From Anaerolineae bacterium (lineage in GTDB: Bacteria; Chloroflexota; Anaerolineae; B4-G1; DUEL01), in contig JBDOIF010000095.1 in assembly GCA_041082215.1 (NCBI GenBank), positions 1 through 44,094 of the forward strand: a stretch of DNA of 44,094 nucleotides. Direction: 5' to 3'. The notes under the pieces are model-generated. The model saw nothing but the letters and a program-made list of their open reading frames with translations, ran no database searches and was not told the origin of the DNA. This document shows, piece by piece, positions 4,088-29,319 of the stretch; position 1 is the stretch's first letter, and each line of letters opens with the position of its first letter. The translations under genes were made by a program, and so were the position numbers.

Positions 4088-4165
4088 CAGGACCGGAGCT
4101 ATTCAATCCTTTCTCACCACTGTCGCAAGTGCGTGATTCCTGATAGAGTGGTTAAGGAGGAGGGT

Positions 4166-5017
4166 ATGGTCGGTGTGCTGACGGATACGACGGCCAGCAT
4201 CCCCAGCTCACTGGTGGAGAAGCTGAAGATCGAGCTGGTGCCCTACTATGTCCATCGGGGCCTGGAGACGCTGCGAGATATGATAGATGTGGGGCCGGAG
4301 GAGTTCGCCCACTACCTGGAGACCGCCTCCCAGCTCCCCACCACCTCCAACCCCGGTCCGGGGGATTATCTGAATGGGTTGCAGCGGCTGGCGGAGCGGA
4401 CACAGGAGGCAGTGGTGCTGACGATGACCTCAAAGGGGAGCGGCGCCTACCAGTCCTGCCGGGCGGCAGTGGAGATCCTGCGGGAGCGGCTGCCACAGAT
4501 GCGGGTGGAGATCGTGGACACCCTTCAGGTCGCCATGTCCCAGGGATGGGCAGCCATCGAGGCGGCACGGGCGGCGCTGGCGGGGCTGAGCCTGGGAGAG
4601 GTCGTGGCGCGGGCCAGAGAGGTCGCCGGTAAGGTGATGATGATTCAGACCGCCGACACGCTCCGTTACCTCTATATGGGGGGGCGCATCGGACGGGCTC
4701 AGCACCTGATGGGCTCGCTGCTCAACATCAAGCCGCTCATCGGCATGGAGGATGGGGTGATCGTGGCACTGGGCACCGCCCGCAGCCGGGCGAAGGCGTA
4801 TGCCCGGATGGTGGAACTGATGTGCCAGCGGGTGGGGGAAGGAGCGCGCATCAAAGTAGCCTTCACCCATGTGGCGGCGATGGATCAACTGGAGCGGCTG
4901 CGAGAGCGGGTGCTGGCCCACTTCGAGTGCGTCGAAGTCCTTATCTCCGCCCTCTCCCCCGCCCTGGCCGTCCACTCCGGCCCGGGAACGGTGGGGTTGA
5001 GCTTTTTCCCGATCTGA
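4166..5017 (+). CDS. DegV/FakB family fatty-acid-binding protein
   Basis: TDTTASIP, PTTSNP, SGAYQS, YLYMGGRIG, LNIKPLI, HSGPG motifs; SD AAGGAGG before ATG 4166. Confidence 0.93.
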   Translation: MVGVLTDTTASIPSSLVEKLKIELVPYYVHRGLETLRDMIDVGPEEFAHYLETASQLPTTSNPGPGDYLNGLQRLAERTQEAVVLTMTSKGSGAYQSCRAAVEILRERLPQMRVEIVDTLQVAMSQGWAAIEAARAALAGLSLGEVVARAREVAGKVMMIQTADTLRYLYMGGRIGRAQHLMGSLLNIKPLIGMEDGVIVALGTARSRAKAYARMVELMCQRVGEGARIKVAFTHVAAMDQLERLRERVLAHFECVEVLISALSPALAVHSGPGTVGLSFFPI

Positions 5018-5127: not shown

Positions 5128-7620
5128 CTACCGCGTCTGCAGGCTGGACTCCGGCATATGGACCGTCTGTCCTGCCTCCAGCGGCTCCATCCGGGAGAAG
5201 ACCACCCCCTCCTCGCCGACGTCCACCAGCACCCGGTCGCCGCTCCTGAACTCGCCCCGGAGCAGCCGGACGCTGAGCGGGCTTTCCACGTGCCGCTGGA
5301 GGGCACGCCGCAGGGGACGGGCGCCGAATTGAGGGTCGTACCCCTCGCGGGCCAGCCACTTGCGGGCCGCTTCGGTCAGCTCCACCTCCAGCCCCTGCTC
5401 CGCCAGCCGGGCCGAAATCTCCCGCATCTGCAGGTCCACGATCCGCTCCACCTGCTCCAGCGTCAGCCGGTTGAAGATGATGATCTCATCCACCCGGTTG
5501 ATGAACTCCGGCCGGAAGACCTCTTTCAGCGCCCTTTCGATCCGGCGGCGGGCTTCTTCTTCCTCTCTGCTCTCCTCGCCAGCCCGCAGGAACCCCAGCG
5601 TGCCACCCTTCTCCGCAAACTCCGTCCCCACGTTAGAGGTCATAATGATGACCGTGTTGCGAAAGTCCACCGTGCGGCCCTGACCATCGGTGAGCCGGCC
5701 GTCGTCCAGGATCTGGAGGAGGGAATGGAGCACCTCGGGGTGAGCCTTCTCGATCTCGTCGAAGAGGATCACCTGGTAGGGACGGCGACGGACCGCCTCG
5801 GTGAGCTGTCCGCCCTCTTCGTAGCCGACATAGCCAGGTGGAGCGCCGAAGAGGCGGGAGACGGTGTGGTGCTCGTGATATTCGCTCATATCAATACGCA
5901 GCAGGGCATCGTCGTCGTCGAAGAGGAACCAGGCCAGCGCTTTGGCCATTTCCGTCTTGCCCACCCCCGACGATCCGAGAAAGATGAAGGAGCCGATGGG
6001 ACGGCGGGGGTCCTTCAGGCCGGAGCGGCCCCGCCGGATGGCGTCGGCGACGGCAGCCACGGCCTCGTCCTGGCCGACGATCCGCTCATGAAGCGCCTCC
6101 TCCATCCGCAGCAGCTTCTCCGCCTCCGTTTCCATCATACGGGCTACCGGGATGCCGGTCCAGGAGGCCACCACTTCGGCGATATCCTCTTCGCTCACCG
6201 TCTCATCCAGTTGGTGCTCCTTCTGCCACCGCTCCCGCTTCGCCCCGAACTCCTCCTCCAGGGCCAGCCGCTGGCTTCTCAACATCATCGCTCGCTGGTA
6301 GTCCCGCTCGCTGTGGGCAGCCTCCTCCTCCATCTGCAGCCGGTTGATCTCCCCCTGCATCTGCTTCAGGTCGGGCGGTAGGGTGTACAGGGCCACACGC
6401 AGCTTGGCCGCTGCCTCGTCTACCAGGTCTATGGCCTTGTCGGGCAGCCGCCGGTCGGTGACATATCGGTGGGAAAGCCGGGCTGCGGCGATCAGCGCCT
6501 CATCGGAGATGTGGACCCGGTGGTGGGCCTCGTACCGATCCCGCAAACCGCGCAGCATCTCGATGGTCTCCTCGACGGTCGGTTCGTCCACGAAGACCGG
6601 GGCAAAGCGGCGCTCCAGCGCGCCGTCCTTCTCGATATATTGACGGTACTCATCCAGCGTGGTGGCTCCGATGCACTGAAGCTCCCCACGGGCCAGGGCT
6701 GGCTTCATCATGCTGGAGGCATCCAGCGCACCAGATGCTGCTCCTGCCCCGACAACGGTGTGAAGCTCGTCAATGAAGAGGATGATCTCCCCCTGCGCCC
6801 GCTGAACCTCCTCGATGGCGGTCTTCAGCCGCTCTTCGAACTCCCCCCTGAACCGGGTACCGGCCACCATCGCTGCCAGGTCGAGCTGGACCACCCGCCG
6901 GCCCTTGAGGATCTCCGGCACATCGTCGGAGACGATCTTCTGGGCCAGCCCTTCGACGATGGCCGTCTTCCCTACCCCCGGCTCGCCGATGAGGACCGGG
7001 TTGTTTTTGGTGCGGCGGACCAGTATCTGGATCACCCGCAGGATCTCCGCGTCCCGCCCGATCACAGGGTCGAGCTTTCCCTCGCGGGCCATCTGGGTCA
7101 GGTCGCGGCTGAACTTTTCCAGGGTGCGGTAGCGGGTCTCGGCCCGGGGGTCCGTGACCCGCTGGCCGCCCCGCACCTCCTGGATTGCCTCATAGATGCG
7201 GGCTTTGATGACCCCCGCCTCGGCCAGAATGCGGGCCACATCGCCGGTCCGGTCGCTGACGATGGCGAGAAAGATGTGCTCGGTAGAGATGTATTCGTCC
7301 TTGAGGCGGTTTGCTTCGTCGTTGGCCATATCCAGCACCCGCTTCACCCGGGGCGTGATAAAGACCTGCCCCAGATTCCCCCGGCCGTAGATACCCGCCT
7401 TGGGGCTGGAACGCAGGACCTCATCCAGCCGGCTTTTGATAAGCTCCACATCCGCCCCCAGGATTTCCAGGAGCTGAGGGACCACGCCTTCCGGCTGTTC
7501 CAGCAGGGCCAGCAGGATGTGTTCGGTATCAACCTGTGTATGGCCGTAGCGGTTCATGATCTCCACAGCCCGCTGGGCCGCGTCCTGAGCCCGCTCGGTG
7601 AAACGGTCCATTCGCATCAT
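5128..7620 (-). CDS. clpC: ClpC-type Hsp100 AAA+ ATPase (ClpP partner)
   Basis: Clp N-domain, two Walker A motifs ([16 protein letters not shown]), short UVR-like middle domain, LGF ClpP-docking loop (GGTLGFL). Confidence 0.88.
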
Positions 7621-7861: not shown

Positions 7862-10477
<2,616 letters not shown>

Positions 10478-10489
10478 ACTTTTCCACCT

Positions 10490-10550
10490 CCACGCAAAAC
10501 CGCAGAGAACGCAGAGGGCGCAGAGTCTCCCTGAGCGTCCTTTGCGGTGG
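10490..10550. repeat. Inverted-repeat element (GCAGAG periodic family) in the clpB leader
   Basis: ccacgcaaaaccgcagagaacgcagagggcgcagag ... gcgtcctttgcggtgg. Confidence 0.7.
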
Positions 10551-10665
10551 ATCAAAGCCCCATTGGAACCTGCTTATAGAATAGGCGATGAGCATTAGAA
10601 AAACGATGGCACAGTGTTAGAGTCTCATAAGTGCGAGACTGTGCCCAAAGGGAATCCAAGGATTG

Positions 10666-10694
10666 TGGACAGAAAGGGAGACTTGTAGTACAAT
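10666..10694 (+). promoter_or_regulatory. sigma70-type promoter for the 10815-13064 operon
   Basis: TGGACA (10666-10671), 17 nt, TACAAT (10689-10694). Confidence 0.65.
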
Positions 10695-10707
10695 CATCTG
10701 AAAAGTC

Positions 10708-10757
10708 ATAGGGCAGGCTTTCTGGACTGCCTGGACAGCCTGGAAAGGCTGTCCTCC
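10708..10757. repeat. Degenerate REP doublet
   Basis: gggcaggctttctggactgcct followed by ggacagcctggaaaggctgtcc hairpins. Confidence 0.6.
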
Positions 10758-10814
10758 AACTATTTTCGGATAGGCCCTTAGCGCAGGCCTGTAAGAACCG
10801 AGGAGTATATTCAG

Positions 10815-11714
10815 GTGAAGCGGGCAGTCAGCATCAGTCTGGGCAGTTCAACCCGGGATAAGTGTGTAACACTTATCCTGATGGGGCAGGAGATCGCCAT
10901 CGAGCGGATCGGCACCGACGGGGACATCCGGCGGGCCATCCAGCTCTATAACGAGCTGGACGGAAAGGTGGACGCTTTCGGCGTAGGCGGGATTGACCTC
11001 GGCTTCACCGTCGCCGGCCGATACTACCCCCTCCACAGCGCCACCAGGCTGACCGCCGGGGTCCGGCAGACGCCAGTGGTGGACGGCGGCGGGCTGAAGC
11101 ACACCCTGGAGCGGCGGCTGGCCCAGTTCGTCGAACAGGAGATCGGTGACCAGGTCCACCCCAAGCGGGTGCTGATCCCCTCCGGTGTGGACCGGTACGG
11201 GCTGGTCCTCTCCTTCGCCGAGGCCGGGTACGAGCTTCTGATCGGCGACCTCGGTTTTGCCCTGGGGCTTCCTATCCCGATCCGCTCTGTCGTCGCCCTT
11301 CGCCGGCTTGCCCGACTTCTCCTGCCCGTCCTCAGCCATCTGCCCCTGAGCTGGCTCTACCCCACCGGGGAGAAGCAGGAAGAGATCGTCCCCAAGTTCA
11401 CGGCCTGGTACAACTGGGCCACAGCGATCGCCGGTGACTGCCTCTACATCAAACGGCACATGCCCGAACGGCTCGACGGCAAGGTGATCGTCACCAATAC
11501 CACCACCGAGCAGGATGTGGAGCTTTTCCGCCAGCGGGGGGTCCGCTACCTGGTCACCTCGACTCCCCGGCTGGAGGGGCGCTCCTTTGGGACCAATATG
11601 ATGGAAGCCGCTCTGGTCGCTCTGGCAGGCAAAGGCCGGCCGCTGAGTTATGAAGAGCTGGAGGAGATGATGGATTGGCTGGGCCTGGGGCCCTCGATCC
11701 AGCAATTGAATTGA
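10815..11714 (+). CDS. Conserved protein of unknown function (family commonly auto-labelled 'quinate 5-dehydrogenase')
   Basis: GTG start after SD GAGGAG. VSISLGSSxRD, IERIGTDGD, VDGxGLKxTLE, LYPTGEKQ, TNTTT, GRSFGTNxMEA motifs recognised from memory of that family. Confidence 0.75.
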   Translation: MKRAVSISLGSSTRDKCVTLILMGQEIAIERIGTDGDIRRAIQLYNELDGKVDAFGVGGIDLGFTVAGRYYPLHSATRLTAGVRQTPVVDGGGLKHTLERRLAQFVEQEIGDQVHPKRVLIPSGVDRYGLVLSFAEAGYELLIGDLGFALGLPIPIRSVVALRRLARLLLPVLSHLPLSWLYPTGEKQEEIVPKFTAWYNWATAIAGDCLYIKRHMPERLDGKVIVTNTTTEQDVELFRQRGVRYLVTSTPRLEGRSFGTNMMEAALVALAGKGRPLSYEELEEMMDWLGLGPSIQQLN

Positions 11715-11743
11715 CCAACCGGGTCTTTTCAGGAGAGCTGGAT

Positions 11744-12553
11744 ATGGACACAGAGAAAAGGACGCTGGCAGCGGTTGTTTTGTCCGGTTATTCGCCGCAG
11801 GAGGAGGACCCCCTGGCGGCCTTTTCCCTCGGCCGGCCTAAAGGACTGATCCCCATCGCCGGGCGGCCGATGCTGGCCTATGTGATAGAAGCGCTGATGG
11901 GCTCCCGTTACATCGGCCCTGTCATCGTCGTGGGGCTGCCCCCCAACGAGCGCCCACCGCTTCCCGCCTCTGTAATCCACCTGCCTGCCCAGGGCGACAT
12001 TCTGGACAACGCCGAGGCAGGCCTGCACCACGCCCTCTCGCTCCACCCGGACCTGGAAGGCGTGCTGATCAGCAGCTCCGACCTTCCGCTATTGACCCCG
12101 GCCATCGTGGATCAGTTCATCGAGGATTGTCTGAAGACGGACCACGACCTCTATTATGGGGTTGTGGAGCGTTCGGTCATGGAAGGCCGTTTCCCCACCT
12201 CCCGCCGGACCTATGTTCGTTTCGCAGACGGCGAATTTGCGGGCGGAGACCTCCTGCTGGTGCGCTCCGGGGCGACCACGCTGGACCGGGAGCTGTGGCG
12301 GCGGCTGGCCCAGGCCCGTAAAAGCCCTCTGCGCCAGGCCCGGATGCTCGGCGGCCCCTGGGCTTTGTTCAAGCTCCTCACCGGGCGGATGTGTCTGGCG
12401 GAGGGGGAACGGCGCGCCAGTCAGGCGCTTCGCGTCCGCGGGCGAGCGGTCGTCTGCTCGTGCGCGGAGGTAGGGATGGACGTGGACAAGCCCTTCCAAC
12501 TGGAGATCGTGCGCGCTGAACTGGAGGCTCGTTTCTATGCTTCGACTTCTTAA
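11744..12553 (+). CDS. MobA-like nucleotidyltransferase (NTP_transf_3 fold)
   Basis: AVVLSG, KGLIPIAGRPML, SSDLPLL and MDVDKP motifs; SD AGGAG before ATG 11744. Confidence 0.85.
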   Translation: MDTEKRTLAAVVLSGYSPQEEDPLAAFSLGRPKGLIPIAGRPMLAYVIEALMGSRYIGPVIVVGLPPNERPPLPASVIHLPAQGDILDNAEAGLHHALSLHPDLEGVLISSSDLPLLTPAIVDQFIEDCLKTDHDLYYGVVERSVMEGRFPTSRRTYVRFADGEFAGGDLLLVRSGATTLDRELWRRLAQARKSPLRQARMLGGPWALFKLLTGRMCLAEGERRASQALRVRGRAVVCSCAEVGMDVDKPFQLEIVRAELEARFYASTS

Positions 12554-13064
12554 TCAGGCCCACCTCGATCGAATCCTGCACACCGACGCCAACCTCTCGG
12601 CCCGTCTGGCCGTCCGCAAAGGCTCCCTGCGGAAACTGGCCCTCCTCGTCGCCCACAGCGGCGACAGCATCCTGTGGATCGCCGGGGCAGTGGCTGCTTT
12701 TCTCTGGGGGGAGGCGGCCTGGCCTTCCTTCGGTCTGCGGACGCTGGTGGGAACGGCCGCGAGCGGGGCGGTTTCCACCTCCCTGAAATGGCTTATCCGT
12801 CGCCACCGCCCCGGGGGTCCCTCCGCCGGCCTGTACGCCCGGATTGACCAGCATGCCTTCCCCTCAGGCCACGCCACCCGGGCTGGCTGCATAGCAGTTG
12901 TCCTGGCCCCTCTCCTGCCCGGCTGGGGGGCTGGCCTCCTGGCCATCTGGGCCGCTATGGTCGCCCTGGCCCGCGTCTCCCTGCGGGTCCACTACCTGCT
13001 GGATGTGACCGTCGGCCTGGTATTGGGGAGCCTGGTCGGTTTGACCCTGCTGCACGTGCTGTGA
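12537..13064 (+). CDS. PAP2-family membrane lipid phosphatase
   Basis: KWLIRRHRP, FPSGH and ARVSLRVHYLLD catalytic motifs; overlaps the upstream gene by 17 nt. Confidence 0.92.
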   Translation: MLRLLNQAHLDRILHTDANLSARLAVRKGSLRKLALLVAHSGDSILWIAGAVAAFLWGEAAWPSFGLRTLVGTAASGAVSTSLKWLIRRHRPGGPSAGLYARIDQHAFPSGHATRAGCIAVVLAPLLPGWGAGLLAIWAAMVALARVSLRVHYLLDVTVGLVLGSLVGLTLLHVL

Positions 13065-13859
13065 TCATCCGGCCCGCTGACGGATCAACGCCACCACCAG
13101 CAACGCCAGTCCTCCCCCGAGGAGCACCACCGGCCCCAGTAGCCGATACCAGGGGCCGGCCAGGGGAGCAAGCGCCGCCAGGAGCACACAGACAAGCGCC
13201 GGCCAGAGGGCCCAGGAGCGTTCCCGTCGCAGGCCGGAAAGCAGGTAGACCAGCAGGAATGTCCCGCCCACCCCGCCGAAGAGGAGCGTGATCGGCGCCC
13301 ACCCCGGCCATCCCGGGGCCACCAGCGGCACAAACCCCACCGTTGTCAGGATACCGGCAGGGATAAGGGCCCACCACTGCTCCCGCCTCACCAGGTAAAC
13401 GATCCAGAAGGGGAAAGCAACCCCCCAGAGGATCAAAGCGCCGGTCCAGTTCTCCCCCAGCCAGGGCGCCAGCGCCGTCCCCGCAGCGATAAAGGTGAGG
13501 ATGCCAGCCGGGATGGTCGCCCACCAGAAAGCGCGGCCTCCAAAGAAGAGGGCCAGCCAGAAGGGGAGGGCGATGCCGAAGAAGATGAATCCGCCGGCAG
13601 CCACGTCGTCGGGGAGCAGCCCGTTGGCGGTAACGTACAGAAGAGCAGAGAGGGAAAGGAAAAGACAGGCAGGCCAAACCGCCCACCTGTACCTCGCTCC
13701 TGCTGTAAGCAGCACCAGGAAGAGGATCCCCAACGCTCCGAAGACAAGGGTCCAGGCCAGAGCTTCCCGACCGGCCAGGTATCCGAGGCGGTCGGCCAGC
13801 ATTGCCCCTCCTACCAGGATCAGAATCAACCCCAGCGCCACACTTGCCCGCCTCTTCAT
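13065..13859 (-). CDS. Polytopic membrane protein with internal WA-x-x-PA repeats
   Basis: About 9-10 hydrophobic helices; repeats RWAVWPA, WWATIPA, WWALIPA, SWALWPA; ATGA overlap with the upstream regulator. Confidence 0.8.
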   Translation of the reverse strand: MKRRASVALGLILILVGGAMLADRLGYLAGREALAWTLVFGALGILFLVLLTAGARYRWAVWPACLFLSLSALLYVTANGLLPDDVAAGGFIFFGIALPFWLALFFGGRAFWWATIPAGILTFIAAGTALAPWLGENWTGALILWGVAFPFWIVYLVRREQWWALIPAGILTTVGFVPLVAPGWPGWAPITLLFGGVGGTFLLVYLLSGLRRERSWALWPALVCVLLAALAPLAGPWYRLLGPVVLLGGGLALLVVALIRQRAG

Positions 13860-16800
13860 CTTTTCTTCCTCCTTCCCGTGTCTCTGCTTCCTGCTTCCTC
13901 ACTTCCGGCCCCCAGCCGCCCTTCCCGAATCTGCCGGGCCAGAGCCTGGGTCTCCGGGGCTGGTTCGACCCCCAGCTCTCCTCTCAGCCGCGCCTGGCAG
14001 CGCCGGTAAACGGCCAGGGCCTCCTCCCGTTGCCCCTGCAATGCATAGGCCCGCATCATCTGACGATGGAAATCCTCTCGCAGCGGGTCCACTTCCAGCC
14101 CACGCCGCAGCACCTCCACGGCCCGATCGAACCGCTCCCGCTCGATGAACCACCGGGCAAGCCGGTCAGCCGCCTCCAGAAACTGCCGTTGAAGCTGATC
14201 CCGCCGTGCCACGCACCACTCGTCATAACAGTCGGTCAGGAAGTCGGCGGTATAAAGTTCCACGGCCCGGGAAAGATAACGGACCGCCTTGACGGGGGGA
14301 GCCCGCTTCGCCTTCTGGACCAGTTGCTCGAACTCTTCCACATCGAACCAGTAGTCGAGGTCGCCGGAGATGCGATAGCCCCTCTCCTCATAGGTGAAGG
14401 GAACTACCCCCAGGGCCCGCTGGACCCGGTACTTGGTGTTATGGAAGGTGCCGGGCAGCCGGTTGGGCCGGAGGTCCGGCCAGAGATCGGCACCGATCTG
14501 CTCACGGGTGGCGGGGGAGTGGGAGAGGAGGTAGAACAGGAGATGGCGGGCTTTGGCCGATTCCCACGCAGCGGACGGGATGAGGACCCCGTCCCGCTCC
14601 GCCCGCCCCACGCCGAAGCCGTAGAAGCGAAAGGAAGGCCGATGGGGAGGCTGAGGCGGTGTGCGCTGCCCCTGCACCTGTCGGGCCTTACGGGCCAGCC
14701 TGTGCGCCTCCGCCAGCAACCGCCCGAACCGCTCCCCATTCCCGCCCTGCTCCACCGCCCACTCCAGCAGGGGGACCAGCGCCGGGAACTGGAGCGGCAA
14801 CAGCCGCTGCTGGTCCGTCCATTCCCCATCCCCGGGGACGGTCTGGAGGACCGCTTTCGCCTCCTCCACCCGCCCCGTCTCCCGGAGGGCCAGAGCGTAG
14901 AGAAGCCGGGCACGGACGGCCTCTTCTTTTGCATTAAGCTGCTCCAGCGCGTCACAGGCAGCCTTCAGCTCCTCCAGTCCCGCTTCTGTCAGCCCATCCT
15001 CTACCATCGCCAGCCCCAGGGTGGCCCGGAACCGTCCCTGCTGGAGGCCGAAGTGTTGCCGTTCGGCCATCGAGAGGGCGCTGCGGGCCAGCTCCGTCGC
15101 CTGGGTGGCATCTCCCAGCCGCAGGAAGGCCAGCGCCAGGGCCTCATAAGTCCAGGAGACCAGGAAAACGTTCCCGGCCACCTCTGCCAGCCGCCTTCCC
15201 TCATCCAGCAGCTCCACCGCCGCCTGAGGCTCCCCCATGTCCCGCAACAGCTCGCCGAGGCTCACCTGGGCATAGGCCTCGACGAGGGGATGGCCGATGG
15301 TGCGGGCGATGTGGAGGGCCTCCTCCAGACCCCGCCAGGCCTCGGCGTAGTCGCCGGACAGGTAGAGGTAGAACCCCAGGTCGTTGAGCGCCTCAGCCAG
15401 GAGGCCAGGGCTTCCCTGTTGTCGGGCGGCCTCCACCGCCGCCCGCTGGGTCTCAACCGCCCTCCTCAGCCGGCCCTGCCAGCGGAAGGAGTGGGCCAGC
15501 CCTTCCAGGATGAGGATCTCCCGTCGGTGAGAGCCGAGCGCCCGGCTTTCCCCCAGGGCGGCCTCGAGCTGGCGGGATGCTTCCTCGAAACGGCCCTGTC
15601 GGATCAGGACGACCCCCAGGATCCGGCGGGCCTCCACCCGGGCTTCCGTCGGCTCGGGGAGGTCTTCGGTCAGGGAGAGCGCCTCCCGGACCCGCTCTGC
15701 AGCCTGTTCGTTCTCGCCCCGGTTGAGGGCCAGCAGGGCCAGGCGGGAGAGGGTAAGGGCAAGGAGCGTCCGCTCTCCCTGCTGGCGGAACGTCTGCTCG
15801 GCGTAGGAGAGCCATTCGCGGGCCTGCTCCGTCTTCCCCGCCGCTGAAACGGCCATCGCAACCGAGAGGAGAAGGCGGGGGTAAGTGCGGAGCGCCTCTT
15901 CCGGCAGCCGCTCCGCCCACCAGGAGAGGGTGGTCAGACGGCCCTCGGCCAGCATTTCCCAGGCGACCCCATCCACCAGGCGGGCCGCTTCCAGGGTCTC
16001 CCCCGCCTCCAGGTAGTGTCGGATGGCGGCGTCCACCTTCCCCCGCGCTTCGAACCACGCCGCTGCCCGGCGATGGAGAGCGACATAGCGGGCCGGGTCC
16101 CCCTCCCGCAGACGGGCCTGGAGAAATTCCTGAAACAGGGCGTGGTAGCGGAAGCGGGGAGGCTCCACACCGGCTATACGGACGAGGAAGAGGTTTCGTT
16201 GTTCCAGTTGTTCCAGTATCTCCTCCGCCCGCTCCAGCCCCAGCGCTTCCCGGCAGAGGAGGGGGCTCATTTCCTGAAGGATGGAAGAGCTGAGGAGGAA
16301 AGCTCGCGTCGCCTCGTCCTGCTGCTCCAGCACTTCGCCGGCCAGATACTCGTAGAGGGGCTTGCCGGCCTTTCGGGCGCCGGTCAGGCCCTCCAGCAGC
16401 CCACCCCAGCGGACGTGCCGGGTGAGGATGATGCCGACAATCCAGCCTTCCGTTTCGGCCTCCAGGGCTGCCACCTCCTCCCGGCTCAGCCGGATCCCCT
16501 GGGTCTGGTTCAGGAAGGCCTGGATCTCCTCAGCCGTGAAGCGGAGGTCATCCTTCCCCAGGCCAGCCACCTGCCCCCTGGCGGCCAGGGAGATGAAGGG
16601 CAGGCCGCCGGGGATGGTGCGGGAAGCGATGATCAGGTGGCAGTGGTCGGGCAGGTACATCAGGAGCGTGGTGAGAAAGGAACAGACATCGTCCGAATCC
16701 TCCACCTCCTGGAAATCGTCGAGGATCACCACGAACCATTCCGGGATCTGCTCCACCATTTCGTTGACCAGCGTGCCGACCACCTCCTCGGCGCCGCCAC

Positions 16801-17122
16801 CGAGGGGTGCACCGCTCCGCACGGCCCGCCGGGTCCGCTCCCCGAAGCCCGGATAGGCCCGTTCCAGGCTGGCCAGCAGATATTCGACGAAGACGCGGAG
16901 GTCTTTATCCGACGCCTCCAAGGAATACCAGCAACAGGTCAGATCGGTCTCGTGGACGAAATCCACCAGCAGCGTGGTCTTGCCATAGCCGGCGCCAGCG
17001 GAGATGAGGAGAAGTTTGCGATCAATATGCTCGTGGAGAAAGTCCAGCAGCCGTGCTCGATAGAGCACGTCGGTCCGCCGGGAGGGGGGCGTAATCTTGG
17101 TGACGACCGGAGCGAATGACAT
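13856..17122 (-). CDS. MalT-like STAND NTPase / TPR / C-terminal wHTH-BTAD transcriptional regulator
   Basis: TKITPP..R..LL, Walker A AGAGYGKTT, VILDD, TEGW, RYHALF; TPR helices; C-terminal LWPD, DVEEFE, LYTADFL, DPLRE (BTAD). Confidence 0.9.
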   Translation of the reverse strand: MSFAPVVTKITPPSRRTDVLYRARLLDFLHEHIDRKLLLISAGAGYGKTTLLVDFVHETDLTCCWYSLEASDKDLRVFVEYLLASLERAYPGFGERTRRAVRSGAPLGGGAEEVVGTLVNEMVEQIPEWFVVILDDFQEVEDSDDVCSFLTTLLMYLPDHCHLIIASRTIPGGLPFISLAARGQVAGLGKDDLRFTAEEIQAFLNQTQGIRLSREEVAALEAETEGWIVGIILTRHVRWGGLLEGLTGARKAGKPLYEYLAGEVLEQQDEATRAFLLSSSILQEMSPLLCREALGLERAEEILEQLEQRNLFLVRIAGVEPPRFRYHALFQEFLQARLREGDPARYVALHRRAAAWFEARGKVDAAIRHYLEAGETLEAARLVDGVAWEMLAEGRLTTLSWWAERLPEEALRTYPRLLLSVAMAVSAAGKTEQAREWLSYAEQTFRQQGERTLLALTLSRLALLALNRGENEQAAERVREALSLTEDLPEPTEARVEARRILGVVLIRQGRFEEASRQLEAALGESRALGSHRREILILEGLAHSFRWQGRLRRAVETQRAAVEAARQQGSPGLLAEALNDLGFYLYLSGDYAEAWRGLEEALHIARTIGHPLVEAYAQVSLGELLRDMGEPQAAVELLDEGRRLAEVAGNVFLVSWTYEALALAFLRLGDATQATELARSALSMAERQHFGLQQGRFRATLGLAMVEDGLTEAGLEELKAACDALEQLNAKEEAVRARLLYALALRETGRVEEAKAVLQTVPGDGEWTDQQRLLPLQFPALVPLLEWAVEQGGNGERFGRLLAEAHRLARKARQVQGQRTPPQPPHRPSFRFYGFGVGRAERDGVLIPSAAWESAKARHLLFYLLSHSPATREQIGADLWPDLRPNRLPGTFHNTKYRVQRALGVVPFTYEERGYRISGDLDYWFDVEEFEQLVQKAKRAPPVKAVRYLSRAVELYTADFLTDCYDEWCVARRDQLQRQFLEAADRLARWFIERERFDRAVEVLRRGLEVDPLREDFHRQMMRAYALQGQREEALAVYRRCQARLRGELGVEPAPETQALARQIREGRLGAGSEEAGSRDTGRRKKR

Positions 17123-22627: not shown

Positions 22628-23806
22628 TTAGATCACCCCCAGCTCCTTTCCAACCTTGCCAAACGCCTCCAGCACGAACGCCAGATGATCGTCCGTGTGG
22701 GTGGCCATATAGGAGGTACGCAGGAGCGCCTGCCCTTCAGGCACGGCAGGGGAGATGACCGGGTTGGTGTAGACCCCCGCATCGAAAAGCATACGCCAGG
22801 CTTTGAAGGTGGTCATATCCTCGCCGAAGATCACCGGCACAATGGGGGTCTGACTGTTCCCCACGTTAAAGCCCAGTGCCTGGAACCCTTTCCGCATCCG
22901 TTCGCCGATCTCCACCACCCGACGGGAGCGTTCCGGCTCCTCGATCATCACCTCCAGCGCGGCCAGGGCAGCAGCCGCATTGGCCGGCGGGATGCTGGCG
23001 CTGAAGATAAGGGAACGGGCGTGATGCTGGATGTAGTGGATCACATCGGCGTCGCCAGCGATGAAGCCGCCCAGACTGGCAAAGGACTTGCTGAAGGTGC
23101 CCATAATCAGGTCCACTCCCTCCGTCACGCCGAAGTGAGCCGCCGTTCCCCGCCCATCCCCCAGTACGCCGATGGAGTGGGCGTCGTCCACCATCAGCCG
23201 GGCACCGTGCTTCCGGCAGACCTCGATCAGCTCTGGCAGAGGGGCGATGTCGCCGCTCATGCTGAAGACCCCATCCACCACCACCAGCCTGCCCGCACCG
23301 TCCGGCAAAGCGGATAACACCTTATCCAGCGCCTGCACGTCATTGTGGGGGAACCGCCGCATCTGGCCAAAGGAAAGCCGACATCCGTCCAGGATGCTGG
23401 CATGGTCCTCCTTATCCGTCACTACGAAGTCCCCCCGCCCCACCAGCGCCGAGATCGTCCCCACGTTGGTCTGGTAGCCAGTGGAAAAGACCAGCGCCGC
23501 CTCCTTGCCCACGAACTCGGCCAGCCTTCGCTCCAGCTCCAGGTGAAGCTCCAGCGTGCCGTTGAGGAAGCGGGAGCCGGTGCAACTGGTCCCGTACCGC
23601 TGGATAGCCTCCAGGGCAGCCTGTCGGACCTTTGGATGGGTGGTGAGGCCCAGGTAGTTGTTCGAGCCGATCATGACCAGCCGGTGGTCCCCGACCCAGG
23701 CAACAGGCCCCTCACTGCCGGTCAGGGGGATGAAATACGGATAGAGACCGATGGCCTTCAGTTCCCGTGCTGCGGTAAAAGCCTGGCATTTCGCAAATAG
23801 GTCCAT
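22628..23806 (-). CDS. PLP-dependent alpha-oxoamine synthase, serine-palmitoyltransferase-like
   Basis: YPYF, GSNNYLGL, GSRFLNGT, DHASI, DDAH, GTFSKS; SD AAGGAG. Confidence 0.88.
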   Translation of the reverse strand: MDLFAKCQAFTAARELKAIGLYPYFIPLTGSEGPVAWVGDHRLVMIGSNNYLGLTTHPKVRQAALEAIQRYGTSCTGSRFLNGTLELHLELERRLAEFVGKEAALVFSTGYQTNVGTISALVGRGDFVVTDKEDHASILDGCRLSFGQMRRFPHNDVQALDKVLSALPDGAGRLVVVDGVFSMSGDIAPLPELIEVCRKHGARLMVDDAHSIGVLGDGRGTAAHFGVTEGVDLIMGTFSKSFASLGGFIAGDADVIHYIQHHARSLIFSASIPPANAAAALAALEVMIEEPERSRRVVEIGERMRKGFQALGFNVGNSQTPIVPVIFGEDMTTFKAWRMLFDAGVYTNPVISPAVPEGQALLRTSYMATHTDDHLAFVLEAFGKVGKELGVI

Positions 23807-24285: not shown

Positions 24286-25641
24286 CTATCGGACAGGCTG
24301 AGGCACAGGGGTTTGACGGTAGAGCCGTTCCCGAATTGCCTGAATCTGGCGGCGGAAGGTCTCATCCTCCTCGACCAGGGCGGCGATCCGTTCGCAGGCG
24401 TGGAGGATGGTGGAATGGTCCCTTCCCCCCAGCAACTGGCCGATCTGGGAGAGGGAAGCGTCCGTTTCCTGGCGGATCAGGTAGCAGGCGACCTGGCGGG
24501 GGCGGGTGACCCGCTGGTTACGGCTGGAGCTGCAGAGTTCCTCGATGGACAGCCGGTAAAAGGCGGCGACGGCTTCCAGGATTGCCCGGGGTGTCGTTTC
24601 CAGTCGGGATGGAGAGACGAGGTCGGTCAGCGTCGCCTCGGCCAGGGAGAGGGTGAGGGGCTGATGGGTAAGGGTGGCAGCGGCCAGCACCCGGTTGAGG
24701 GCTCCCTCCAGCTCCCGGATGTTGCTCTGGATCCGCCCGGCGATCAAATAGAGAATCTCGTCCGGGATGGCTGCGGCCTGCTCTTCGGCCTTTCGCCGGA
24801 GGATGGCGATGCGGGTCTCCAGCTCTGGGGGCTGGATGTCAACGATCAGACCCCACTCGAAGCGAGAGCGAAGCCGCTCTTCCAGCGTGGCCATCGCCCG
24901 CGGGGGGCGGTCAGAGGAGATGACGATCTGAGCCCCGTTCCCGTGCAGTGTGTTGAAGGTGTGGAAGAACTCCTCCTGAGTGGACTCTTTGCCGGCGATG
25001 AACTGGATATCGTCAATCAGAAGGACGTCAACGGTCCGATAGGTTTCGCGGAAGGCATCGGTACTCTGGGTGCGGATGGCCTCGATCAGGTCGTTGGTGA
25101 AGGTCTCGGCGGAGACGTAGAGGACGCGCAGGTTGTTGGCTTTGCAGATGTGGCCGATGGCGTGCAGGAGATGGGTTTTGCCCAGTCCGACGCCCCCGTA
25201 GATAAAAAGAGGGTTGTAGGTGGTCGCCGGCCGTTCCGCCACCGCCTGGCAGGCGGCGTGGGCCAGCCGGTTGCCGGGGCCGACGACGAAAGAGTCGAAG
25301 GTATAGCGGCTGTTCAGCGGGTTTGAGGACCGCCCGTTCCCCCGCCCCGATGTCTCCTGGGGTTGCAGGAGGGGGGAAGGCTCCGCAGCACGGGGCGGTT
25401 CCCACACCACAAAACGGACATCCACCGTCCGGCCAGCAAGGCGGTTGAGGGTGCGCAGGATGACCGGGCGGAGACGTCCCTCCAGCCAGTCTTTGGCATA
25501 GGCATTGGCAACGCCGATGACGAAGGTTCCATCTTCATAGGCTACCAGCCTGGTGCCGCGCAGCCAGGTGTTGAAGGTTGCCCGAGTTGTCTCCAGTTGT
25601 AGCTCACCCAGCGCAGCCTGCCAGATCCTGTCGGCGTCCAT
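24286..25641 (-). CDS. dnaA: Chromosomal replication initiator DnaA (451 aa)
   Basis: Start MDADRIW with SD AGGAG; YTFDSFVVG, YNPLFIYGGVGLGKTHLL, LLIDDIQF, RLRSRF, GGRDHST. Confidence 0.98.
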   Translation of the reverse strand: MDADRIWQAALGELQLETTRATFNTWLRGTRLVAYEDGTFVIGVANAYAKDWLEGRLRPVILRTLNRLAGRTVDVRFVVWEPPRAAEPSPLLQPQETSGRGNGRSSNPLNSRYTFDSFVVGPGNRLAHAACQAVAERPATTYNPLFIYGGVGLGKTHLLHAIGHICKANNLRVLYVSAETFTNDLIEAIRTQSTDAFRETYRTVDVLLIDDIQFIAGKESTQEEFFHTFNTLHGNGAQIVISSDRPPRAMATLEERLRSRFEWGLIVDIQPPELETRIAILRRKAEEQAAAIPDEILYLIAGRIQSNIRELEGALNRVLAAATLTHQPLTLSLAEATLTDLVSPSRLETTPRAILEAVAAFYRLSIEELCSSSRNQRVTRPRQVACYLIRQETDASLSQIGQLLGGRDHSTILHACERIAALVEEDETFRRQIQAIRERLYRQTPVPQPVR

Positions 25642-25821
25642 AAAGGCTCCTGGTGGCGTGGTGGCACAAAAGTTCCCCCAAAATGTGTAAATCCGAAGGA
25701 ACACGCGAGAGTAGAGAATCTGTGGAGCAGACGGCCCGGTAGGACGGTAATTACTGTGGTTACCCGGGGAGCTTGGCGGCAGGAGCTTATTCCCCCCTCT
25801 GCCCACCCTCGCGCGCCCCAT

Positions 25822-26170: not shown

Positions 26171-26977
26171 CTAACCGACGACCAGCTCCCCTCCGTCTAC
26201 AGGGATCACTGCGCCGCTGATCCAGGTGATGGCCGGGTCGGCCAGTGCCACCAGGACCCGGGCCACATCTTCGGTGGTGGTGAGCCGGCCGCCGGGATTG
26301 CGCTTCAGCGCCTCCTCCACCCAGTACTCGTGGCCGGGTATGGCCCGCAGGGCAGGGGTGTCGGTCACGCCGGGCCGCAGGCAGTTGACGGCGATCCCCA
26401 GCGGCCCCAGCTCCAGCGCCAGTTGTCGCACGTGGCTTTCCAGCGCCGCCTTGGCCGCCGAAACCGCTCCGTACGGTACGACCACCCGCTCCGCACCGGC
26501 GCTGGAGAGGGCGTAGATACGGCTGCCCCGCGTCAAAAGCCCCCGCCGGACCAGGTCCTGCGTCCAGTAGACCAGGCTGTGAGCCATCACCCGCAGCGTC
26601 ATATCCATCTGGGCTTCGGTGATCGCCTCCTCGGGCTTGTCGGCGATGAAGGGGAGTAGCGATCCGAACGCCAGCGAGTGGAGGACGAAGTGGATCGCCC
26701 GGTGTGTCTCCTCCGCCAGGACCGCTTCGATCTGATCCAGCACCCTGGCCCGCTTGCCGGCATCGGCGGCGTTGGTGTTGAAGAAGACCGCCCGCTGCCC
26801 CGCCGCCTCGACATCTGCCACCACCTGTCTGGCGCGGTCCAGCGTCGCTTTGGTGTCCAGATGGACGCCGAAGATGTTCATCCCTGCACCGGCCAGCGCG
26901 CGGGCAGTTGCCGCGCCAAACCCGCTGGAGGCCCCCAGGATCAACGCCCAGCGGTCTTTGAGTTCCTCTCTGCTCAT
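26171..26977 (-). CDS. SDR oxidoreductase, enoyl-ACP reductase (FabL/FabI)-like
   Basis: GASSGFG; YGAVSAAK (Y-x6-K spacing of enoyl reductases); PGVTDTPAL; VDGG. Confidence 0.82.
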   Translation of the reverse strand: MSREELKDRWALILGASSGFGAATARALAGAGMNIFGVHLDTKATLDRARQVVADVEAAGQRAVFFNTNAADAGKRARVLDQIEAVLAEETHRAIHFVLHSLAFGSLLPFIADKPEEAITEAQMDMTLRVMAHSLVYWTQDLVRRGLLTRGSRIYALSSAGAERVVVPYGAVSAAKAALESHVRQLALELGPLGIAVNCLRPGVTDTPALRAIPGHEYWVEEALKRNPGGRLTTTEDVARVLVALADPAITWISGAVIPVDGGELVVG

Positions 26978-27065: not shown

Positions 27066-28358
27066 TCAGGGATATGTTACCGGGCCTTCCCGTGGCTCCG
27101 GCAGCCCCGCCGCCAGCCTGTACACGATCAGGCAAAGCCCCAGGACGATGGCGAACAATCCGGCGAAGCCGAAGAGGTCCACCAGTAACCCTCCCAGTCC
27201 GGAGATGAGGAGGACGATCCCCGCCAGCGTGTTGGAAAGGCCCAGGTAGAGGGGACGCTCCGCTTCCGGAACCAGTTCGAGGAGAAAATTGCTGCCCACG
27301 AATACCTGAGCCGGGCGTATGGCGCCGTCCAGGATGAAGATCGGCAGGGCCAGGTAAGGAAGCCATCTTCCCTCCAGCTTCAGCCACTCCACCAACCCCA
27401 CCAGCCCCAGCGCCAGGAGCGCCGTCAGGCCGCTGCCCAGGCTGAGAAGCTTCATCACCAATCGGTTCCCCCGCCGATCGCTCAGCCGCCCCCACGGCAG
27501 GTTGGAAAGAAGTTGAGCGGCCACCCGGGCCGTCACGTAAACTCCCACCATCCCCGCTGGAGCCCCCAGTACGTCCTTGGCGTAGATGCCGTAAAAGGGC
27601 AGGGCAATCCCCGTCAGCCCCAGCGTCAGTTGGGCTATTATGTAGCGCCGGTAGACGCGATCCGTCCGCAGGAGATGGCCGGCCCGCCGCATCTGCTTCC
27701 CTACCGTCACATGCTCCGCCACCACTGCCCCTGCTGGCTCCCGGATGGCGATGAAAGCCCCCAGTGCCGGGACCATCGCTGCGCAGTAGAGGGCGAAAAG
27801 GAGGGCGTGGCCCCGGGGAAAGGGGAAAGCCGGATGGTTGAGGACCAGCTTCACGATCCACCCAGCCCCCAGCCCCAGGACCCCTCCCAAAAACTGCCGC
27901 CAGGCGAAGAGGCTTCCTCGCTGTCGGGCCGGGACCGTCTTCGCCGTCACGTCGAAAAAGGCCAGCCCCCCCAGCCCCGCAGAGGTGCGGGCCAGGGCAT
28001 ATAGCATAAAGAAGACGGCCAGCAGGAAGCGAGGGTCGTCCACCAGCCAGACGGCTGCTGCCAGGATGATCCAGGAAACGGTCCGGATCGCCGCCGCCGC
28101 AACGTAGCTGGGCATCTTCCGTGCCATCCGCTGGATGCGGTTGGAGACGAAGATCTGGGGCAGGGACCAGCCTGCATCTGCCAGCGGGGCCACCAGCCCG
28201 ATCAACAGGTTGGAATCGGTCAGGTGGCTCACAAACCAGGTGAGGACCAGCGGCGGGTCAATCAGCCGCTCGGCGAAGTTGAAGGCGGCGCCGTTGAAGA
28301 CGTTCAGCGCGAAGCTGCGCCGGACCTCGCGCCTGGGGAGCGCGACTTCCAGGTTCAT
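27066..28358 (-). CDS. MFS transporter
   Basis: About 12 TM helices; WGRLSDRRGNR motif; ATGA overlap with xdhC. Confidence 0.9.
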   Translation of the reverse strand: MNLEVALPRREVRRSFALNVFNGAAFNFAERLIDPPLVLTWFVSHLTDSNLLIGLVAPLADAGWSLPQIFVSNRIQRMARKMPSYVAAAAIRTVSWIILAAAVWLVDDPRFLLAVFFMLYALARTSAGLGGLAFFDVTAKTVPARQRGSLFAWRQFLGGVLGLGAGWIVKLVLNHPAFPFPRGHALLFALYCAAMVPALGAFIAIREPAGAVVAEHVTVGKQMRRAGHLLRTDRVYRRYIIAQLTLGLTGIALPFYGIYAKDVLGAPAGMVGVYVTARVAAQLLSNLPWGRLSDRRGNRLVMKLLSLGSGLTALLALGLVGLVEWLKLEGRWLPYLALPIFILDGAIRPAQVFVGSNFLLELVPEAERPLYLGLSNTLAGIVLLISGLGGLLVDLFGFAGLFAIVLGLCLIVYRLAAGLPEPREGPVTYP

Positions 28359-29140
28359 ACCTTTCCTCTCTGGACCCCGATGATCTCGGCCAGGATGCTG
28401 ACGGCGATCTCCCGCGGGGTCTCCGCTCCGATGTCCAGCCCGATAGGGGTGTGGACCCGTTCCAGGAATGCCTCCGGCACCCCTGCCTCCCGTGCCCGAC
28501 GGAAGGTCTGCTCGGTGCGACGGCGGCTGCCGAGCAGTCCCACGTAGGCCACCGGCCGCTCTGCCAGCACTGCCAGCACCCGCTCGTCCGGCGTGTGATG
28601 GGGCGTGACGATCACCACGCAGGTCTGTTCGCCGATCGGAAGCTGCGCCACCCGCTCAGCCGGATCGCCCGCCAGCCGGACCGATGCCTGGGGAAACCGC
28701 TCCGGCCCCACCATCTCCGGCCGCTCGTCCACCACAGCGATCCGGTAACCCAGGAACGCCCCCAGCTCCGCCACTGCCTGTCCCACATGTCCACCGCCGA
28801 TGATCAGCAGTGTGGGCCGGGGAGGAAGCACCTCGATGAAAAGATGCATCTCCTCGCCACAGATGTCAGCCTGGCCTGCTTCTCCCTCTGCTGGTCGGTG
28901 GGTTAGCTCCTGGCAGCGCCCCTCAGCGATGGCGGCCAGCGCCGTCTCGATCGCCCGCGCCTCCACCTCGCCGCCCCCGACTGTCCCTACTGTGCTGCCG
29001 TCGTCCAGCACCAGCATCTTGGCCCCCACCCCCCGGGGCGTGGAGCCGCCCACCTGTGTGACCGTGACCACGGCTGCTGGCCTTCCTTCCCTCAATGCTT
29101 CCAGAATCGCCTCGTAGACCCGCTCCAGCTCTTCTACCAT
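28355..29140 (-). CDS. XdhC/CoxI family molybdoenzyme maturation factor
   Basis: GSTPRGVGAKM, GTVGGG, ICG, IIGGGHVG, YVGLLGS, PIGLDIGAETPREIAVSI; start MVEELERV. Confidence 0.92.
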   Translation of the reverse strand: MVEELERVYEAILEALREGRPAAVVTVTQVGGSTPRGVGAKMLVLDDGSTVGTVGGGEVEARAIETALAAIAEGRCQELTHRPAEGEAGQADICGEEMHLFIEVLPPRPTLLIIGGGHVGQAVAELGAFLGYRIAVVDERPEMVGPERFPQASVRLAGDPAERVAQLPIGEQTCVVIVTPHHTPDERVLAVLAERPVAYVGLLGSRRRTEQTFRRAREAGVPEAFLERVHTPIGLDIGAETPREIAVSILAEIIGVQRGKV

Positions 29141-29165
29141 TTCGCCTCCCGGACAGAGGAACCTT

Positions 29166-29281
29166 GTAGGACAAGCTTCAGCTTGTCCTACACCATAAAA
29201 CCACAAAGACACAGAGAGCACGGAGGGGTTTTGTAGGGCAAGCTTTAACTTGCCCTGCAGCGTCCTCCGTGCCTTTGTGGT
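29166..29281. repeat. Composite repeat: REP (29166-29191) plus ACCACAAAG...CTTTGTGGT element (29200-29281) with a second REP nested at 29233-29258
   Basis: GTAGGACAAGCTTCAGCTTGTCCTAC; GTAGGGCAAGCTTTAACTTGCCCTGC. Confidence 0.8.
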
Positions 29282-29319
29282 GAGATGACACCCATCCCGA
29301 CCGTTTCTCACAACTGCCG

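Follow-up and report, generated by a model that had tools for sequence, protein, structure and literature searches.

Genomic Locus and Gene Arrangement

The window analyzed in this work is a stretch of DNA of 44,094 nucleotides from an Anaerolineae bacterium belonging to the phylum Chloroflexota (NCBI GenBank assembly GCA_041082215.1, contig JBDOIF010000095.1, positions 1 to 44,094 of the forward strand). The source metagenome-assembled genome is 96% complete and consists of 174 contigs. This work is concerned with three consecutive genes within this window (Table 1), which encode a protein that is named 'quinate 5-dehydrogenase' in public records (referred to here as X), a nucleotidyltransferase (referred to as NT), and an integral membrane phosphatase of the PAP2 family. 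The results presented below indicate that X-NT-PAP2 is a conserved, uncharacterised module, which is built around a mislabelled protein family.

Table 1. Coordinates (in the window) of the genes and putative expression signals of the X-NT-PAP2 locus
Feature	Position	Strand	Description
X ('quinate 5-dehydrogenase' in public annotation)	10815-11714	+	299 aa, GTG start
NT (nucleotidyltransferase)	11744-12553	+	269 aa from ATG; longer alternative TTG start at 11675
PAP2-family integral membrane phosphatase	12537-13064	+	175 aa
Sigma-70-like match TGGACA-17-TACAAT	10666-10694	+	10/12 consensus positions
Shine-Dalgarno-like GAGGAG ahead of the GTG start of X	10800-10805	+	Read from the sequence

The three genes are oriented in the same direction, with a spacing of 29 nt between X and NT and an overlap of 17 nt between NT and PAP2. 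This arrangement, together with the coordinates of the genes, had been reported in a preliminary description of this DNA and it was confirmed from the open reading frames. As the genes on both sides of them (a ClpB gene, 7862-10555, and a gene for an unassigned membrane protein, 13065-13859) run on the opposite strand, X, NT, and PAP2 form an isolated co-directional unit. Shine-Dalgarno-like sequences (GAGGAG, AGGAG, and GGAGG) are found 8-10 nt upstream of the starts of X, NT, and PAP2, respectively, with that of NT lying 8 nt ahead of an ATG codon and that of PAP2 also preceding an ATG. The alignments of the homologs of NT begin at residues 1-9 of the form that starts with ATG, which favours this codon over the upstream TTG. 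The promoter described earlier ahead of X corresponds to a sigma-70-like site, and this element is best regarded as promoter-like, since a match to the consensus is not proof of a promoter; four such matches were present in the region 10300-13400, where 0.3 are expected from shuffled sequences. A scan of the region 10400-13300 against Rfam yielded a single chance-level miRNA match, so that the leader gave no sign of a riboswitch.

DNA that is nearly identical to this locus was detected in hot-spring metagenome runs from two studies, and the DNA described here may derive from one of them. In one metatranscriptome-library run, short identical contigs were found within each of the X, NT, and PAP2 genes, and a run from a second study contained one contig of this kind, located within X. 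None of these RNA contigs spans the X/NT or the NT/PAP2 junction, and a carry-over of DNA is possible. Hence, the three genes look co-transcribed based upon their layout, and the RNA contigs do not establish that they form a single transcript.

Conservation of the Three-Gene Arrangement

The occurrence of X, NT, and genes resembling those for acyl-ACP reductase (AAR) was counted in 301 evenly sampled Chloroflexota genomes. Of these genomes, X was present in 51 and NT in 24, and the latter 24 genomes, all of which belong to the class of the window, without exception carry X, with the coordinates of NT abutting those of X in every one of them. Where the best match to X was followed by at least 1.7 kb of sequence, NT and then PAP2 were observed downstream of it on the same strand in 25/25 genomes (the source genome included). 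Similar results were obtained for 80 named Anaerolineae-type loci, which were drawn with a narrow alignment of X that retrieved Anaerolineae-type MAGs only, and 73 of which extend for at least 1.7 kb downstream of X. The complete X-NT-PAP2 arrangement was found in 59 of these 73 loci (in one case with X duplicated in tandem), while seven contained X-NT with no detectable PAP2 and another seven contained X alone. As the same gene order recurs over many genomes, this arrangement is far beyond what could arise by chance, and the three-gene unit that was recognized in the preliminary description is thus a conserved one.

The second, lower-scoring copies of X (10 loci) and the fused forms of this protein (11 loci) were accompanied by neither NT nor PAP2. 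In a clustering of the neighbours within ~7-9 kb at 81 loci, for which the gene calls are rough, only X (73 loci), NT (64 loci), and PAP2 (49 loci) were found to recur, and no conserved fourth gene was observed among these loci, the next commonest neighbour being a class-IV aminotransferase (20/81). X-NT-PAP2 is a self-contained module, of which X-NT constitutes the tightest core, and the three-gene module is specific to the class Anaerolineae. In the seven loci containing only X-NT, no replacement for PAP2 was evident; the genes downstream of X-NT in the loci lacking PAP2 included deoxynucleoside kinase-MazG fusions, histidine kinases, and an acyl-CoA dehydrogenase. Additionally, one locus (L057:6193-9290) contains two tandem copies of X, each of them ~57% identical to X from the window, which are followed by NT and then PAP2.

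Predicted Structure and Conserved Motifs of Protein X

The family to which X belongs is large, with at least 8000 clusters at 90% identity and 956 clusters at 50% identity, and the best 120 relatives of X among those listed are 73-100% identical to it. This degree of identity, together with the large number of invariant polar residues, shows that X is under strong constraint. In searches of Pfam and NCBIfam, no family match was obtained for X at E values of up to 0.01. The AlphaFold model of this protein, which was based upon 54 diverse sequences, has a pLDDT of 96.2. The structure prediction for this gene, proposed in the preliminary description as a means of examining X, was followed by a fold search of 48,161 chains by a method independent of Foldseek. 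The top match was the cyanobacterial AAR (6jzq_A), with a Z score of 13.7 and a root mean square deviation of 4.4 over 243 of the 299 residues, and the second was the carmabin TAD domain (9e4s_A; Z score of 11.4, 254 residues), all others having scores of 9.4 or less. Foldseek concurred with these results, as AAR and TAD were among the best TM-scores for X. The shikimate dehydrogenases, in comparison, reached a Z score of only ~8 in the fold search. As in AAR and TAD, an N-terminal domain is followed in the model of X by a dehydrogenase-like domain, and the predicted structure conforms to the two-domain fold of the AAR/TAD/PigE-N family (COG5322).

In a number of respects, however, X differs from these proteins. 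It has no detectable sequence or profile similarity to AAR or TAD, and no match was obtained between it and the TIGR04058 and PigE models. According to the TAD preprint, AAR and TAD both possess an NAD(P) site and a catalytic cysteine that is invariant; in this family, the cysteine lies in the cleft between the two domains. In contrast, no invariant or near-invariant Cys is present in X among the columns of the 54 aligned sequences, and the position of the dinucleotide-binding loop is occupied by S-x-x-D-R-x-G, which reads S-A-x-D-R-x-G in the same alignment, in place of the Gly-rich loop, with D126 and R127 of this sequence being nearly invariant. The equivalence of these two loops is suggested by the secondary structure of the model. 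The invariant motifs of X are mostly polar (SxSLGS-x-RD, GTDG, TPxxDG, DR, GD, TNTTT, and GRSFGTN), and two of these invariant loops, GRSFGTN and TNTTT, appear to take the place of the region that harbours the catalytic Cys in other proteins of this fold. Based upon its model, X is a protein with the AAR fold that lacks the defining catalytic motifs of AAR, and it may be an enzyme. The motifs noted above probably represent a re-tooled ligand-binding or catalytic site, whose ligand would be polar or phosphorylated.

The label 'quinate 5-dehydrogenase' is wrong, because neither of the shikimate dehydrogenase domains (Shikimate_dh_N, PF08501, and Shikimate_DH, PF01488) is found in X, the Gly-rich loop is absent, and a separate canonical AroE is encoded elsewhere in the source genome (PF08501 match at G000:C84:76436-76684). 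These results are in accordance with the earlier remark that X is devoid of shikimate/quinate dehydrogenase motifs. The family is thus one of large size for which no Pfam or NCBIfam model exists and whose wrong name is spreading through public annotation. In two genomes from one genus (L025:4376-9888 and L027:8991-14526), a paralogue of X, referred to here as X2, is the last member of an overlapping string of genes, which consists of an aroK-aroB fusion, aroQ, an alpha/beta hydrolase, an MFS transporter, a metallo-beta-lactamase-fold protein, and X2. The 'quinate dehydrogenase' label may have arisen from this aro-linked paralogue.

The Nucleotidyltransferase and the PAP2 Phosphatase

NT matched the family PF12804 (NTP_transf_3) with a score of 51 bits (cut-off 27). 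A clear relative of it in both sequence and fold is TTHA0179 (2dpw), a hypothetical transferase from Thermus thermophilus (E value of 4e-34 by sequence; fold TM-score of 0.76, 38% identity), and a full-text literature search found no paper naming this protein. For the model of NT (pLDDT of 91), the fold matches that came after TTHA0179 were IspD, KdsB, CMP-NeuAc synthetase, TarI, and GlmU (for the cytidylyltransferases, Foldseek E values of ~1e-9 and TM-scores of 0.5-0.58), and no MobA structure was present among the best 50 Foldseek matches. The scores of NT are below all equivalog cut-offs, including those for MobA (NF001457, 32.5 bits, cut-off 164), MocA (TIGR03310, 23.4 bits, cut-off 186.45), and IspD (16.6 bits, cut-off 181). 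Thus, although NT shares a common fold with IspD, TarI, and KdsB and belongs to the NTP_transf_3 family, it differs from these enzymes in falling far under the equivalog cut-offs and in bearing at its C-terminus an extra helical part of ~90 residues, which has invariant motifs of its own. Chloroflexota account for most of the atlas clusters that resemble NT, and the cytidylyltransferase family PF02348 is additionally found in 26-40% of the members of these clusters. In the source genome, three NTP_transf_3 genes score well above NT.

No genes for the molybdenum cofactor (Moco) were found among the conserved neighbours of NT, the nearest Moco-related gene in the window being XdhC (28355-29311), which is 15 kb away. 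The preliminary description was therefore correct in regarding this protein as a nucleotidyltransferase with no Moco genes alongside. Of the term 'MobA-like' that was applied to it, the match to PF12804 stands, but the score with the MobA model and the fold, which is nearer to those of IspD, KdsB, and TarI, do not bear it out. Based upon its family and its modelled fold, NT is a putative nucleotidyltransferase, and probably a cytidylyltransferase, acting on a phosphate monoester.

The third protein matched the PAP2 family PF01569 with a score of 60.8 bits (cut-off 27.2). The motifs K-x6-RP, PSGH, and R-x5-H-x3-D, which we take to be the three catalytic motifs of this family, are all present in its translation (as KWLIRRHRP, PSGH, and RVSLRVHYLLD). 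The solved structures closest to it are those of lipid phosphatases, viz. YodM/PgpB (5jki, E value of 2e-4) and LpxE (6ebu, E value of 7.5e-4). The Pfam match and the catalytic motifs are features that it shares with PgpB/YodM, LpxE, and the undecaprenyl-diphosphatases, and at the level of the family its earlier assignment to PAP2 is upheld. However, it reaches none of the cut-offs of the PgpB or undecaprenyl-diphosphatase equivalogs, and its scores were below all equivalog cut-offs (SepP, 32.8 bits, cut-off 250; another model, 24.6 bits, cut-off 229; PgpB, 18.2 bits, cut-off 261). A literature search pairing 'quinate 5-dehydrogenase' with nucleotidyltransferase and PAP2 returned nothing relevant.

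Association of X with an Acyl-Thioester Reductase

X is also found in fusions, either with a Shikimate_DH-like domain or with an alpha-oxoamine synthase (AOS) preceding it. A search for long forms of X identified 13 X+PF01488 and two AOS+X fusions among 18 matches. The C-terminal half of the former fusions and a stand-alone protein in the source genome (C152:14482-15831) are AAR-like proteins that contain GATGxIG and an invariant Cys, and the AAR-like family retains this residue (Cys292) inside an A-C-M/L-A/S-E-T motif. The AAR-like protein is related to PigE (4ppm, E value of 1.5e-39) and to AAR (6jzq, E value of 3e-24), and it also matched the NCBIfam models for PigE (222 bits, cut-off 850) and AcACP_reductase at scores below their cut-offs. 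Judging from these sequence features, the wider partner of X is a true AAR/PigE-N-type thioester reductase, and true members of the family whose fold is seen in X are thus fused to X or adjoin it. It is this partner, and not X, that resembles PigE-N and KecF (COG5322), where conversion of a thioester to an aldehyde is followed by transamination. As described in a passage of PMC6498172, PigE and KecF are made up of a reductase together with an aminotransferase, and that passage describes no X-like protein in these systems, in which respect they differ from the pair considered here.

With a threshold of E 1e-20, an AAR-like gene was detected in 53 of the 301 Chloroflexota genomes, 49 of which also contain X and four of which have the reductase only. 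It is thus present in 49/51 of the X-bearing genomes; as these genomes are interrelated, they do not provide independent counts. X and the AAR-like protein form a single open frame of ~690-790 aa in 27 of the 49 genomes, all of them from another class. In addition, 80 distant metagenome loci were considered, in which X is 39-64% identical to the representative used and the G+C content ranges from 27 to 70%. In 33 of them, the AAR-like gene is located on the same strand within ~1.3 kb of X, and in three more it is at ~3 kb (36/80). No NT was found in any of these 80 loci. The co-occurrence with acyl-ACP-reductase-like proteins, which the preliminary description had put forward, is strongly supported by the genome counts, the fusions, and the gene adjacency.

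In the distant loci, the X/AAR-like pair is embedded in the conserved gene order birA/coaX-dus-HTH-X-AAR-greA-lysS (e.g. L186:7001-11125 and L166:39-8095). Certain lineages of high G+C content have a class-III aminotransferase between dus and the AAR-like gene, followed by X, greA, and lysS, so that an aminotransferase lies beside the AAR-like/X pair. The dus-X-AAR-greA-lysS arrangement (L147-L226) places an uncharacterised gene pair in a housekeeping-type setting that has no ready explanation. In seven metagenome loci (among them L192:7908-8810, L204:7908-8822, and L217:7908-8822), X is followed by a protein of ~300 aa with no Pfam match, which occupies the usual place of the AAR-like reductase. 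A complex prediction for X and the AAR-like protein of the source genome gave a score of 0.00 and hence no call, which speaks neither for nor against binding.

In the source genome (G000 C152) and at two other loci (L142:2298-8576 and L145:2214-8271), the stand-alone AAR-like gene is part of a conserved cluster that codes for a DUF4388 protein, a small Ras/MglA-like GTPase, an alpha/beta hydrolase, a V4R protein, a hexapeptide-repeat protein of 425-456 aa, the AAR-like protein, and a response regulator-GGDEF protein. The alpha/beta hydrolases that are found near the X paralogues, the X-AAR fusions, and the AAR-like gene do not constitute one orthologous group, and the link suggested by them is a weak one. 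A strong homologue of alkyl-dihydroxyacetonephosphate synthase (2uuu, E value of 4.5e-105) is encoded ~2.7 kb from the AAR-like gene (C152:18533-20197; L140:12534-14198, minus strand), with the alpha/beta hydrolase and the V4R protein between them, and it suggests that this organism may make ether lipids. This gene was detected in 56 of the 301 Chloroflexota genomes (the unpublished G198 counted in), and it was rejected as a part of the module as its distribution departs from that of X (f4, 3/20 genomes; f22, 0/18 genomes). A literature search on ether lipids yielded nothing concerning the family of X.

Possible Function of the X-NT-PAP2 Module

Our tentative reading of these observations, which we hold with some reserve, is that the module builds or remodels a membrane or envelope amphiphile, or the head group of one, via a CDP-activated intermediate. 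X would be an ancient, re-tooled relative of the AAR/TAD/PigE-N acyl-thioester reductases, which has retained their two-domain fold and no longer reduces thioesters. It would instead bind, and if it is an enzyme perhaps transform, a derivative of the product of its partner reductase, one that is polar and probably carries a phosphate, with the reductase being supplied from elsewhere in the genome (in the source genome, by the stand-alone gene noted above). NT, as its fold and family suggest, would couple a phosphate monoester to a nucleoside monophosphate, probably CMP, to give a nucleoside diphosphate (NDP)-linked alcohol, and PAP2, in keeping with its family, would strip the phosphate off a lipid-phosphate intermediate at the membrane. 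In this manner, X would connect the module with the reactions of the acyl-thioester reductase that is its usual partner. All of the substrates in this scheme, as well as the order of its steps, are presumptive.

A number of observations weigh against this proposal. In a comparison of the X and AAR-like alignments by hhalign, a probability of 0.15% was obtained, and the pairwise score of X with the AAR-like protein (34) was not above that of shuffled sequences (mean of 36), so that the correspondence drawn between the motifs of X and AAR derives from their shared predicted fold and from no detectable sequence similarity. Two genomes (G108 and G176) contain X-NT-PAP2 and have no AAR-like gene at E 1e-20, and therefore the module can work without that reductase. 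The location of the X/AAR-like pair between dus and greA-lysS is not a lipid-like context, and in the class of the window the stand-alone AAR-like gene resides in a signalling-type cluster (small GTPase, DUF4388, V4R, response regulator-GGDEF). The operon itself encodes no transferase for which an NDP-alcohol could serve as substrate, 7/66 of the X-NT loci lack PAP2, and no lipid-synthesis gene was a consistent neighbour of the operon among the 81 loci.

The last of these points also bears on the preliminary description, in which the three genes were viewed as a candidate membrane-lipid operon, with DegV, an enoyl-reductase-like SDR, and a serine palmitoyltransferase (SPT)-like enzyme as possible partners in its pathway. 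The genes for DegV (4133-5017), a FabL/FabI-like SDR (26171-26977), and an SPT-like AOS (22628-23806, minus strand) are genuine genes of the window. The best NCBIfam match of the AOS was to the Bacteroidota-type serine palmitoyltransferase (514 bits, cut-off 640), with bioF at 390 bits (cut-off 426), and this AOS of a Chloroflexota genome may be SPT-like. An AOS-like gene is found 5.6-8.2 kb downstream in 8/80 of the Anaerolineae-type loci, and the rare AOS-X fusions (two clusters) leave a weak link to this enzyme. However, none of the three genes was a conserved neighbour at the 81 loci, where LytR_cpsA_psr (five loci) and a monogalactosyldiacylglycerol (MGDG)-synthase-like gene (seven loci) were occasional neighbours. 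Thus, the conserved and uncharacterised module that was envisaged earlier is real, but the lipid context is absent from its conserved neighbours, and a diol, alkylamine, or sphingoid backbone for its product is a guess that the conserved context does not support.

An alternative, which we consider unlikely, is that the module activates a polyol phosphate or sugar acid for an envelope polymer or a polar head group in the pattern of TarJ/TarI, with a substrate that is not acyl-derived. X in this case would make or bind a small alcohol phosphate, NT would convert it into a CDP-alcohol, and PAP2 would recycle polyprenyl diphosphate or trim a polyprenyl-linked intermediate. A dehydrogenase-fold protein beside a cytidylyltransferase is a TarJ/TarI-like pairing, and this proposal is in keeping with the nearest characterised folds of NT (IspD, TarI, KdsB, and CMP-NeuAc synthetase), with the resemblance of the invariant Ser/Thr/Asp/Arg/Asn loops of X to the binding sites of phosphorylated ligands, and with the occasional presence nearby of the LytR_cpsA_psr and MGDG-synthase-like genes. 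The best NCBIfam matches of PAP2 are also undecaprenyl-diphosphatases, albeit at scores that are far under their cut-offs. However, the partners of X elsewhere (AAR-like, AOS) use thioesters and not sugars, no polymerase or transferase gene is linked to the module at the 81 loci, and X is without the Gly-rich loop that a polyol-phosphate reductase dependent on NAD(P)H should possess.

It is equally to be considered whether X is a non-catalytic or regulatory partner of the reductase in a pathway leading from aldehyde to amine that has no relation to lipids, with NT-PAP2 having been recruited secondarily or merely sharing its promoter; to us this seems improbable. The loss of the catalytic motifs of the fold from X is in keeping with such a role, as are the embedding of the pair in coaX-dus-HTH-X-AAR-greA-lysS over lineages of 27-70% G+C and the position of a class-IV aminotransferase as the commonest fourth neighbour in Anaerolineae. 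The dus-aminotransferase-AAR-X-greA-lysS order likewise mirrors the combination of reductase and aminotransferase in PigE and KecF, as described in PMC6498172. This explanation is, however, difficult to reconcile with the tight adjacency of X and NT (66/73 loci, with short gaps or overlaps) and with the finding that NT occurs, among the 301 genomes, only where unfused X is present, a pattern that would be hard to account for if the two had no function in common. Further, the conservation of X and its own invariant polar motifs are too strong for a mere scaffold, and G108 and G176 possess X-NT-PAP2 in the absence of the reductase.

A further proposal, which is highly doubtful in our view, is that X and the reductase together make a non-glycerol, long-chain backbone, e.g. 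an alcohol, amine, or diol derived from a fatty aldehyde, and that in Anaerolineae X-NT-PAP2 turns a phosphorylated form of this backbone into a membrane lipid via a CDP-linked, Kennedy-like route. If this were true, the product would represent a new class of bacterial lipids and X a new type of enzyme, in which every catalytic motif of the AAR fold has been replaced. Lastly, the possibility that the public labels are correct, i.e. that X is a quinate/shikimate 5-dehydrogenase and NT a MobA/MocA-type Moco enzyme, can draw on the recorded name of X, the designation of the Pfam family of NT as MobA-like, the X paralogue in the aroK-aroB/aroQ operon, and the XdhC gene of the window, but it is close to refuted by the missing shikimate dehydrogenase domains and Gly-rich loop, the canonical AroE, the ranking of AAR above the shikimate dehydrogenases in the fold search, the low MobA and MocA scores of NT and the lack of MobA among its best folds, the three stronger NTP_transf_3 genes, and a distribution of NT that tracks X and not Mo enzymes.

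Hot springs, digesters, and sediments harbour Anaerolineae in abundance. If the tentatively favoured reading is correct and a membrane or envelope compound is built by the module, this would supply a missing piece of the lipid biochemistry of this class, about which little is known. If it is not, the mislabelling of X is still corrected and two partnerships of this protein are defined, one with NT and the other with the AAR-like reductase. A number of handles on the role of X are provided by these results, viz. an AAR fold that is predicted to be without AAR chemistry, true reductases that are fused to X or adjoin it across phyla, and the rewiring of X to NT and PAP2 in one class.

Flanking Genes

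The operon is located in the window between several genes of recognizable type. Directly upstream of it, on the other strand, are tandem Clp/Hsp100 ATPases, a ClpC-like protein (5128-7620, minus strand) and the ClpB-like protein (7862-10555, minus strand). On the other side, the gene for the membrane protein overlaps at its end by 4 nt with a gene (13856-17122, minus strand) that encodes a protein of 1088 aa containing a STAND-like NTPase, TPR repeats, and a BTAD transcriptional-activator domain. The dnaA gene (24286-25821, minus strand) is found ~11 kb from the operon, and the window may thus be near the replication origin.

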